A DNA stretch of 64,000 bases from Escherichia coli (GTDB taxonomy: Bacteria; Pseudomonadota; Gammaproteobacteria; Enterobacterales; Enterobacteriaceae): assembly GCF_003334335.1 (NCBI RefSeq), contig NZ_QOWQ01000002.1; one strand, written 5' to 3'. The position numbers were made by a program, and so were the translations under genes. Under the pieces are notes generated by a model. That model was not told the origin of the DNA. It worked only from the letters and a program-made list of their open reading frames with translations, and did no database searches. This document shows, in pieces, positions 22,188 through 25,200 of this stretch (position 1 is its first letter; every line of letters starts with the position of its first letter).

Positions 22188-22506
22188 AGTAGTCTCCTGA
22201 GGTTTTATTAGAATCATTATGTTTGAGCGTAGCGTTGGTAACGCTACCAGGCGCGTGAATGTTACCCCATTTTATGTATGGACATGTAGTGAAAACTACA
22301 ACCTTGTCGTTCGCTTTGGCATCATTTTCATTATAAAGACGGAATTTTGCATCAGCTTCTCATCAAGAAAAACAACTAAAAAATCAATCACAATACTTGT
22401 GCATTTCTTTAAACAGTTTTTAAAAACTGACTCCGGGTATGGAGCTATGGGTATTTTCTGTACCCAATGCTTTTAACAGCAATTAATTTCATAGGATGAA
22501 AGCTCA

Positions 22507-25098
22507 ATGCATCAATCTGGTTCTGTTTCTCTTTGTCGTTCCGCAATATCTGTTCTGGTGGCTACAGCGTTATATTCACCCATAGCATTGGCATCAACTG
22601 TTGAGTATGGTGAGACAGTTGATGGTGTTGTTCTGGAAAAAGATATCCAGCTGGTTTATGGGACCGCCAATAATACGAAAATCAATCCTGGCGGAGAACA
22701 GCATATAAAAGAATTTGGTGTAAGTAATAATACTGAAATTAACGGAGGGTATCAGTACATTGAAATGAATGGCGCCGCAGAATACTCAGTATTAAATGAC
22801 GGTTATCAAATTGTTCAAATGGGTGGCGCGGCAAACCAGACTACGCTCAATAATGGTGTGCTACAGGTTTATGGCGCAGCGAATGATACCACGATTAAAG
22901 GCGGGCGCTTAATCGTTGAAAAAGATGGGGGGGCCGTCTTTGTCGCTATCGAAAAGGGAGGACTACTGGAGGTTAAAGAGGGGGGATTTGCATTTGAGGT
23001 AGATCAGAAAGCAGGCGGTGCTATTAAAACAACCACGCGGGCCATGGAGGTATTCGGAACAAACCGTCTCGGTCAGTTCGATATCAAGAATGGTATTGCT
23101 AATAATATGTTGTTGGAAAACGGCGGAAGTTTGCGAGTTGAAGAAAATGACTTCGCTTATAATACCACTGTAGATAGTGGCGGCTTACTGGAGGTTATGG
23201 ATGGCGGGACTGTAACTGGCGTTGATAAAAAAGCAGGCGGAAAATTAATTGTCTCAACGAATGCGCTGGAAGTGAGTGGTCCAAACAGTAAAGGCCAATT
23301 TAGTATAAAAGATGGTGTGTCAAAAAATTATGAACTGGATGATGGTTCCGGGCTCATTGTTATGGAGGACACGCAGGCCATTGATACTATCCTTGATAAG
23401 CATGCCACTATGCAATCGCTGGGAAAGGATACTGGTACGAAAGTGCAGGCAAATGCGGTATATGATCTCGGTCGATCATATCAGAATGGAAGTATCACGT
23501 ATTCCTCAAAAGCCATCTCTGAAAATATGGTTATCAACAATGGCCGCGCTAACGTCTGGGCTGGCACAATGGTTAACGTTTCAGTCAGAGGGAATGATGG
23601 CATTCTTGAGGTCATGAAGCCGCAAATAAATTATGCACCCGCAATGTTGGTGGGTAAGGTAGTGGTTTCTGAGGGCGCTTCTTTTAGAACGCATGGTGCC
23701 GTGGATACCAGCAAAGCGGACGTTTCGCTCGAAAATAGCGTATGGACCATCATTGCCGATATCACTACGACGAACCAAAACACCCTCCTCAACTTAGCCA
23801 ACCTTGCGATGTCTGACGCAAATGTGATTATGATGGATGAGCCAGTGACTCGTTCATCAGTGACGGCAAGTGCGGAAAATTTCATTACGTTGACCACCAA
23901 TACCCTGTCGGGAAACGGCAATTTTTATATGCGTACCGATATGGCTAATCATCAGAGCGATCAGCTCAACGTCACCGGTCAGGCAACAGGTGATTTCAAA
24001 ATATTCGTGACGGACACCGGTGCCAGCCCGGCAGCAGGAGATAGCCTTACACTGGTAACAACGGGCGGCGGTGATGCTGCATTTACGTTGGGCAATGCCG
24101 GAGGCGTTGTTGATATCGGTACGTATGAATATACCTTGCTGGATAATGGCAACCATAGCTGGAGTCTGGCAGAGAATCGCGCGCAAATTACCCCTTCAAC
24201 CACTGATGTGCTGAATATGGCGGCCGCACAACCGCTGGTATTTGATGCAGAACTGGACACCGTGCGTGAGCGTCTTGGTAGCGTAAAAGGCGTTAGTTAC
24301 GATACGGCGATGTGGAGTTCGGCAATTAACACCCGCAACAACGTGACCACTGATGCGGGAGCTGGTTTTGAGCAAACATTGACGGGCCTGACGCTCGGTA
24401 TCGATAGCCGTTTCTCCCGTGAAGAAAGCAGTACAATTCGCGGCTTGATCTTTGGTTACTCTCATTCTGATATTGGTTTTGATCGCGGCGGCAAAGGTAA
24501 TATCGATAGCTATACCCTGGGGGCTTATGCCGGTTGGGAGCATCAGAACGGTGCCTATGTTGATGGGGTGGTGAAAGTTGACCGTTTTGCCAACACCATC
24601 CATGGCAAGATGAGTAATGGGGCAACAGCGTTTGGCGATTACAATAGTAACGGCGCGGGTGCTCATGTTGAGAGCGGGTTCCGTTGGGTTGACGGATTGT
24701 GGAGTGTTAGACCCTATCTGGCCTTTACCGGCTTTACCACAGATGGTCAGGACTACACGTTATCAAACGGCATGCGCGCGGATGTGGGAAATACCCGGAT
24801 ATTACGCGCTGAAGCGGGAACGGCGGTAAGCTATCACATGGACCTGCAAAACGGTACGACGCTGGAACCCTGGCTGAAAGCGGCCGTGCGTCAGGAATAC
24901 GCCGATTCTAACCAGGTGAAAGTTAATGACGATGGCAAATTTAATAATGATGTGGCTGGAACCAGTGGCGTTTATCAGGCTGGTATAAGGTCATCGTTTA
25001 CCCCGACGTTAAGCGGTCATTTGTCAGTCAGCTATGGCAATGGCGCAGGGGTAGAATCGCCGTGGAATACTCAGGCGGGTGTGGTCTGGACGTTCTGA
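22507..25098 (+). CDS. yejO: autotransporter family outer membrane protein YejO (adhesin-like)
   Basis: 863-aa ORF; N-terminal signal-like region, passenger domain with repeated G-rich beta-helix-type motifs, C-terminal beta-barrel region ending ...GVVWTF. Confidence 0.85.
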   Translation: MHQSGSVSLCRSAISVLVATALYSPIALASTVEYGETVDGVVLEKDIQLVYGTANNTKINPGGEQHIKEFGVSNNTEINGGYQYIEMNGAAEYSVLNDGYQIVQMGGAANQTTLNNGVLQVYGAANDTTIKGGRLIVEKDGGAVFVAIEKGGLLEVKEGGFAFEVDQKAGGAIKTTTRAMEVFGTNRLGQFDIKNGIANNMLLENGGSLRVEENDFAYNTTVDSGGLLEVMDGGTVTGVDKKAGGKLIVSTNALEVSGPNSKGQFSIKDGVSKNYELDDGSGLIVMEDTQAIDTILDKHATMQSLGKDTGTKVQANAVYDLGRSYQNGSITYSSKAISENMVINNGRANVWAGTMVNVSVRGNDGILEVMKPQINYAPAMLVGKVVVSEGASFRTHGAVDTSKADVSLENSVWTIIADITTTNQNTLLNLANLAMSDANVIMMDEPVTRSSVTASAENFITLTTNTLSGNGNFYMRTDMANHQSDQLNVTGQATGDFKIFVTDTGASPAAGDSLTLVTTGGGDAAFTLGNAGGVVDIGTYEYTLLDNGNHSWSLAENRAQITPSTTDVLNMAAAQPLVFDAELDTVRERLGSVKGVSYDTAMWSSAINTRNNVTTDAGAGFEQTLTGLTLGIDSRFSREESSTIRGLIFGYSHSDIGFDRGGKGNIDSYTLGAYAGWEHQNGAYVDGVVKVDRFANTIHGKMSNGATAFGDYNSNGAGAHVESGFRWVDGLWSVRPYLAFTGFTTDGQDYTLSNGMRADVGNTRILRAEAGTAVSYHMDLQNGTTLEPWLKAAVRQEYADSNQVKVNDDGKFNNDVAGTSGVYQAGIRSSFTPTLSGHLSVSYGNGAGVESPWNTQAGVVWTF

Positions 25099-25160
25099 TA
25101 ACAGAAAATAAACAGGCTGTGATGTGTCACGGTCTGTTTATCGAATTAATTGCAGATATA

Positions 25161-25189
25161 AAAAAACCAACCGTAAGGGTTGGTTTTTT
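25161..25189. terminator. bidirectional rho-independent terminator between yejO and proL
   Basis: AAAAAA-ccaacc-gtaag-ggttgg-TTTTTT, A/T-runs on both sides. Confidence 0.8.
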
Positions 25190-25200
25190 CTTGGGATTTT

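Follow-up and report, generated by a model that had tools for sequence, protein, structure and literature searches.

An uninterrupted yejO allele predicted to encode a complete type Va autotransporter in a close relative of Escherichia coli K-12

Introduction

We analyzed yejO, a gene for an adhesin-like autotransporter, within a 64,000-nucleotide stretch of Escherichia coli DNA (assembly GCF_003334335.1, contig NZ_QOWQ01000002.1; hereafter the window, with positions counted from its first letter). The best solved-structure matches for the YejO passenger are Ag43 (Flu/Cah), AIDA-I, and TibA, which have in common with YejO the type Va architecture and a beta-helix passenger of AIDA-type repeats of ~19 amino acids (aa), yet the identity is only about 21–28%. 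Ag43 is subject to a Dam/OxyR (GATC) phase switch, whereas none is evident upstream of the window yejO. AIDA-I and TibA have an adjacent heptosyltransferase gene (Aah and TibC, respectively), whereas yejO has narP and proL as its neighbors; no heptosyltransferase gene adjoins yejO in the window, which is collinear with K-12, and K-12 has none at this locus.

The C-terminal half of YejO (junction, linker, and barrel) is closest to Bordetella Vag8, BrkA, and pertactin. This similarity is restricted to the secretion unit, and the passengers of these proteins and their roles in complement evasion and host adhesion are not shared with YejO by sequence. Proteins registered in RefSeq as 'autotransporter YejO' (WP_021544686.1 from LR-64-2 and WP_000554226.1 from EC416) have 863 aa, the same synteny, and 99.9–100% DNA identity; nothing substantial separates them from the window copy, the extra feature of EC416 being an IS1414 copy in the gap between yejO and proL. 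K-12 MG1655 resembles the window in the locus and in its 319- and 102-bp spacers but differs in that the insertion sequence (IS) IS5K splits its copy. The pseudogene state of yejO in K-12 is already in the literature (PMC11005336; PMC11677980), and yejO is among the 11 IS5 loci of BW25113 (PMC11677980).

The yejO allele of the window and of K-12

The yejO of the window is very probably the ancestral, uninterrupted allele, carried by a strain very close to K-12 and encoding what is predicted to be a complete type Va autotransporter. The gene and the site at which K-12 differs are as follows:

22507–25098, + strand: yejO coding sequence (CDS), intact, 863 aa plus stop; open reading frame (ORF) list
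22570–22573, + strand: TTAT, the empty IS5K target site, single here and duplicated in K-12; base-level alignment to MG1655

The six-frame ORF list gave an ATG start and a C-terminal end of ...VVWTF*, in agreement with an earlier note, made from the sequence alone, which had read yejO as one uninterrupted 863-aa ORF. An in-frame TAG lies five codons 5' of the ATG, which is therefore the first possible start. An ORF of 863 codons is far beyond chance, and all domain tests agree on a real gene.

The window was aligned to MG1655 2245000–2314000 with its annotation. The MG1655 annotation (NC_000913.3) gives yejO (b2190) in two pieces, as the pseudogene 'adhesin-like autotransporter YejO' interrupted by 'insertion sequence:IS5K' (2288919–2290113, 1195 bp, insH8). 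The earlier note had mentioned an IS5 copy near yejO in K-12 and frequent annotation of the gene as a pseudogene there, which the annotation bears out, and the reference does not share the uninterrupted arrangement because IS5K is present there. The alignment placed IS5K after codon 22 of yejO, within the signal-peptide coding region; the K-12 frame with the element present reads MHQSGSVSLCRSAISVLVATALWKVRTSP*, and translation ends after 29 aa. Removal of IS5K and one TTAT copy from the MG1655 gene gave the 863-aa frame again, and this IS-removed sequence was identical to the window yejO at 2590 of 2592 nucleotides, with one aa difference (E164 here, A in MG1655).

The window has a single TTAT and a continuous frame in place of the K-12-type yejO::IS5K allele, which is marked by GGAAGGTGCG... 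inverted repeats and a 1195-bp IS5 at TTAT. The IS5 terminal inverted repeat GGAAGGTGCGAACAAG had no match at ≤2 mismatches anywhere in the 64 kb, as the earlier note had also reported from reading the letters; one 3-mismatch match, at 12994, is at chance level, as in shuffled sequence. The target duplication of IS5K in K-12 yejO is TTAT. IS5 target sites are usually quoted as CTAA or CTAG, unlike the TTAT at K-12 yejO.

Over its full length the window aligns collinearly with MG1655 2312234..2247487 (reverse strand), with only two structural differences, namely the absence of IS5K and more copies in a 113-bp tandem array. Outside this array, a variable-number tandem repeat (VNTR), the window and MG1655 differ by 16 single-nucleotide polymorphisms (SNPs) and one 1-bp deletion across 64 kb, a relation of ~1 SNP per 4 kb. 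A sharp change in SNP density at yejO, as at a recombination break, was considered and rejected: with the VNTR set aside, a recount found 6 SNPs on the upstream side and 10 on the downstream side.

Domain architecture and predicted structure of YejO

YejO is, by sequence profiles and structural modeling, predicted to be a complete classical (type Va) autotransporter with the following parts:

22507–22593, + strand: signal peptide, aa 1–29 (MHQSGSVSLCR / SAISVLVATALY / SPIALA), predicted cut before S30; heuristic
22594–24189, + strand: passenger, aa 30–561, beta-helix of ~19-aa rungs with a 74-aa super-repeat; Pfam, TIGR04415, periodicity, AlphaFold2 (AF2), and fold search
23797–24171, + strand: pertactin-like junction (autochaperone-type) domain, aa 431–555; PF03212
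24193–24282, + strand: alpha-helical linker, aa 563–592, expected in the barrel pore; sole helix in the AF2 model, predicted local distance difference test (pLDDT) >90
24304–25095, + strand: 12-stranded beta-barrel translocator, aa 600–863, with C-terminal Phe; PF03797, TIGR01414, 3QQ2, and AF2

The N-terminus has one basic residue (R11), a hydrophobic core at aa 12–22 (Kyte–Doolittle up to 2.15), and A-L-A before S30. In the passenger, periodicities of 74 and 19 aa were found, and Pfam AIDA repeats matched aa 184–245 (7.7e-24) and aa 257–315 (1.5e-21), along with weaker ones. TIGR04415, the strand-loop-strand repeat of heptosylation targets, reached 65.4 bits (cut-off 30) over three stretches. 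The equivalog models for Ag43/Cah (NF033177) and AIDA-I (NF033176) gave 131.2 and 75.5 bits, respectively, against cut-offs of 1200. The junction matched PF03212 (Pertactin) at E 3.2e-45 over model positions 2–120/121, and also pertactin 1DAB and Vag8 7AKV. The beta-domain PF03797 covered aa 602–841 at model positions 1–254/255 (Pfam, E 8.8e-45), and TIGR01414 was covered end to end (NCBIfam, 2–432/432). The C-terminal aromatic residue of the beta-signal recognized by the beta-barrel assembly machinery (BAM) is present as the Phe of ...VVWTF.

Among solved structures, sequence comparison matched the passenger to Ag43 (7KOH at 5.3e-36, and 4KH3), an AidA-I family adhesin (7KO9), and TibA (4Q1Q), and the C-terminal half to Vag8 (7AKV, 8e-36, aa 459–860) and pertactin (1DAB); the BrkA beta-domain 3QQ2 was matched over chain residues 3–284/284. 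A library-wide search with a cut-off of E ≤ 1e-3 returned 2193 relatives; outside YejO itself, the nearest representatives were only 41–45% identical, and an alignment of 70 relatives from this search served as AF2 input. The resulting model (mean pLDDT 88.1; predicted template modeling score, pTM, 0.71) had an all-beta passenger at aa 30–561, a single helix at 563–592, and twelve long strands within 600–862, while residues 1–27 were disordered with pLDDT <50. Foldseek searches against the PDB matched the modeled passenger to Ag43 7KOH (E 2.9e-22) and the barrel to the BrkA beta-domain 3QQ2 (template modeling score, TM, 0.90; root-mean-square deviation about 3 Å), followed by EspP (TM 0.81–0.83) and by the Hbp, NalP, and AIDA-I translocators.

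Pfam, NCBIfam, AF2, and Foldseek thus agree with the earlier description of a signal-like N-terminus, a repetitive passenger, and a C-terminal barrel ending in Phe. The barrel is not incomplete (PF03797 1–254/255, 12 strands), and with a complete translocator and a continuous frame, the description of the window copy as an uninterrupted allele of an adhesin-like surface gene holds.

Distribution of intact and altered alleles

To place the allele within the species, we counted its states in 5426 complete E. coli genomes. A 120-bp probe across the IS5 site was unbroken in 5050 genomes and broken or not found in one piece in about 358, the yejO–proL junction was intact in 4925, at least 80% of the 3.3-kb locus was covered in 4285, and a mid-passenger probe was present in 4266. 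Among the matches listed, the IS5-bearing genomes were the K-12-type laboratory strains 5FA, EV36, TUM23337, Stbl4, 'K-12', and J53. The unbroken site with a single TTAT in 5050 genomes points to this as the ancestral state.

The exact 863-aa protein is already registered in NCBI/UniRef as 'autotransporter YejO', with a 90%-identity cluster of 16,859 members, and the identical protein was found on at least 13 public contigs. GCA_003334335.1, which bears the same number as the source assembly GCF_003334335.1, matched the window without a single difference along the 8592 bp compared. yejO is annotated as an intact CDS across phylogroups. Uninterrupted yejO is therefore the species norm and K-12 the exception; the feature is already known and is the ordinary wild-type state. 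The significance implied by the earlier note was overstated, given the counts for the IS5 site and the proL junction and the name that the protein already bears.

Length variation was also seen: strain A3019 (708–3077 of the compared locus L009) has lost one 74-aa passenger module in frame (aa 168–241), leaving 789 aa. The 74- and 19-aa periodicity of the passenger suggests that such variation probably arises by recombination between repeats.

Expression signals and proposed function

GC content was 36–44% in the upstream spacer and 5' third of yejO (22100–23600) and about 52% in the flanks and the barrel-coding part. Adhesin genes that are silenced or of horizontal origin typically show a GC gradient of this kind. 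A promoter scan of the 319-bp spacer found no near-consensus sigma-70 promoter, and the same region contains zero GATC sites. An Ag43-like phase switch was considered for yejO and rejected, as no GATC and no promoter match occur upstream and Rfam detected only a tRNA. Neither H-NS control nor expression data for the intact allele were found in the literature. RNA-seq compendia of K-12 detected the yejO fragment in 106 of 3376 data sets, which places it with the least detected genes (PMC10392735). Expression of yejO is probably low or conditional.

The steps of type Va secretion have been reviewed (PMC9289746). On this general model, the 29-aa signal peptide would direct Sec-dependent export, and BAM, guided by the terminal aromatic residue, would insert the C-terminal 12-strand barrel in the outer membrane. 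The barrel pore would hold the linker helix, and the passenger would emerge C-terminus first, the pertactin-like junction folding first and nucleating the long beta-helix, which would be displayed on the cell surface. In K-12, IS5K entered the signal-peptide coding region and truncates translation after 29 residues. By analogy with Ag43, AIDA-I, and TibA, the YejO beta-helix most likely mediates adhesion or cell–cell aggregation.

Alternative explanations

The window could in principle come from a K-12 derivative that lost IS5K through precise excision or through engineering of an IS-free chassis. Only 16 SNPs separate it from MG1655 in 64 kb, and the IS5 copy at yejO has been deleted in mutants of BW25113 (PMC11677980), but those 16 SNPs, together with the psuT 1-bp deletion and about 4 additional VNTR copies, are too many differences over 64 kb for a laboratory descendant of K-12, which makes this origin very unlikely. 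The same protein is also encoded on 13 contigs, some of which have a proL island absent from K-12, and 5050 genomes have the site uninterrupted, with TTAT present once. The 8.6-kb stretch that is identical in the public draft assembly GCA_003334335.1 speaks against such a derivative and also against an assembly artefact, in which a real IS copy would have been collapsed out. Although IS copies are a known trouble in short-read assemblies, nothing specific points to such an error here; repeats normally break contigs and do not vanish seamlessly, and the clean single TTAT is that of thousands of complete long-read genomes, so that an artefact is exceedingly improbable.

With an ancestral, uninterrupted allele as the preferred reading, we tentatively propose from the likeness to known adhesins that intact YejO may be a functional, conditionally expressed, self-associating adhesin. 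Several points weigh against the preferred reading and its adhesin role. The predicted N-terminal Sec signal peptide was assessed heuristically only. The Ag43 and AIDA-I scores, far below the equivalog cut-offs, indicate that YejO is a paralogue and not an orthologue of the characterized adhesins, and the searchable literature yielded no experiment on the intact protein, so that homology is the only basis of the proposed role in adhesion or aggregation. The lack of a near-consensus promoter in the 319-bp spacer suggests that the gene may be silent in most conditions. yejO has decayed repeatedly in other lineages, which suggests that it is dispensable: it is frameshifted with an internal stop in O111:H8, carries large internal deletions in about 21% of genomes, and was missing from ST131 in a clone comparison (PMC5654935). 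It is possible, if somewhat doubtful, that the ORF is intact but cryptic, that is, silent (for example, through xenogeneic silencing of its AT-rich 5' region), drifting toward a pseudogene, and yielding no surface protein. The GC content of 36–44% upstream and in the 5' third against about 52% in the flanks, the promoter scan, and the independent inactivations are consistent with a cryptic gene, as is the figure of 106 of 3376 K-12 data sets (PMC10392735), but in K-12 IS5 parts the fragment from its promoter. However, most genomes keep the full 863-codon frame, and its annotation as intact extends across phylogroups. The frame also survives 2–3% nucleotide divergence, which suggests purifying selection, and no direct evidence on H-NS or expression was found for an intact allele.

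If YejO is a self-associating adhesin, a near-isogenic relative of K-12 would show an aggregation, biofilm, or colonization phenotype that K-12 lost through IS5K, and the pair would offer a clean genetic handle on a widespread E. coli autotransporter on which no experiments were found. A strain almost identical to K-12 with intact yejO would be a convenient background for studying the role of YejO. K-12 itself is a poor reference for this gene, its pseudogene being a lineage-specific IS5 hit and not the species state. The locus also illustrates the repeated loss of an adhesin gene in E. coli by IS insertion, frameshift, large deletion, and in-frame loss of a repeat module. Beyond such bookkeeping the importance is small, and all of it is consistent with published knowledge.

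Neighboring genes and the proL attachment site

The synteny narP / yejO / proL / yejM (lapC) that characterizes the YejO orthologue group is kept in the window. The elements surrounding yejO are as follows:

21540–22187, − strand: narP (nitrate/nitrite response regulator), left neighbor, divergent from yejO, 215 aa; ORF list and transferred RefSeq CDS coordinates
22188–22506, no strand: narP–yejO intergenic region, 319 bp, AT-rich (36–41% GC); sequence, composition, and promoter scan
25160–25189, no strand: hairpin between an A-run and a T-run, AAAAAAACCAACCGTAAGGGTTGGTTTTTT; read from the sequence
25201–25277, − strand: proL, tRNA-Pro(GGG), 3' end toward yejO, attachment site empty here; ARAGORN and Rfam
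25352–27112, − strand: yejM/lapC, right neighbor; ORF list and annotation

The spacer between the narP start (RefSeq, 22187) and the yejO ATG measures 319 bp and that between the yejO stop and the proL 3' end 102 bp, each as long as its MG1655 counterpart. The earlier note had given these spacers as 320 and 100 bp and free of any IS, which agrees with the measured values apart from the small differences in length. An 85-aa ORF at 22219–22476 (+) occupies the narP–yejO spacer and is a gene call in one public assembly. It has no Pfam match, is unannotated in MG1655, and is most likely spurious. On the other side of yejO, the hairpin at 25160–25189 is a probable bidirectional terminator for yejO and proL; a simple scan of the window failed to pick it up, and Rfam detected only the tRNA at the locus.

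No integrase, phage genes, or duplicated tRNA 3' end, as expected of a proL island or prophage, lie between proL and yejO in the window. The 102-bp gap is as in K-12, which fits the earlier observation that nothing is integrated at proL. In O111:H8, a phage-like island beside yejO encodes a capsid protein, a small terminase, a RepA-type helicase, and an Icd-like protein. A similar island is present in three assemblies that encode the identical YejO protein (L012, L014, and L016), and the island-bearing strains diverge from the window at 25215–25220, 15–20 nucleotides inside the proL 3' end. The island (L006 9453–15103, and L012, L014, and L016) is small, contains a major capsid protein, and resembles a capsid-forming phage satellite. 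One strain has an integrase remnant at proL, and Shigella flexneri 1c has a gtrIC prophage remnant between tRNA-Pro and yejO (PMC4924310). proL is a polymorphic attachment site for phages or islands, and most genomes have it empty, as the window does. In EC416, IS1414 lies in the yejO–proL gap at about 25190–25197, beside the AAAAAAACCAACCGTAAGGGTTGGTTTTTT hairpin, and yejO is intact; an IS1414-interrupted yejO in this strain was considered and rejected, since annotation and alignment place the IS in the gap.

Other features of the window

The 113-bp tandem array is located at 7170–8287, between eco and mqo, and comprises 9.9 copies with 97% matches. The MG1655 array has ~6 copies (2304390–2305065), and that of the window is 452 bp longer. 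Every one of the best complete-genome matches to window positions 1–25000 was split into two or more aligned pieces, which suggests that those genomes have fewer array copies. The array looks like a variable-number repeat of palindromes resembling repetitive extragenic palindromic (REP) elements.

psuT, which encodes a putative pseudouridine transporter (54153..55402, + strand), has a 1-bp deletion at 54932 relative to MG1655 that splits the gene into ORFs 54153..54950 and 54935..55402. This deletion was present in 0 of 4167 complete E. coli genomes carrying the segment, the best match being 99.2% with one gap; it reflects a frameshift private to this strain or an error in sequencing. psuT (54135–55393) and nupX (57324–58583) are nucleoside-transporter paralogues with 79% DNA identity, as in K-12.

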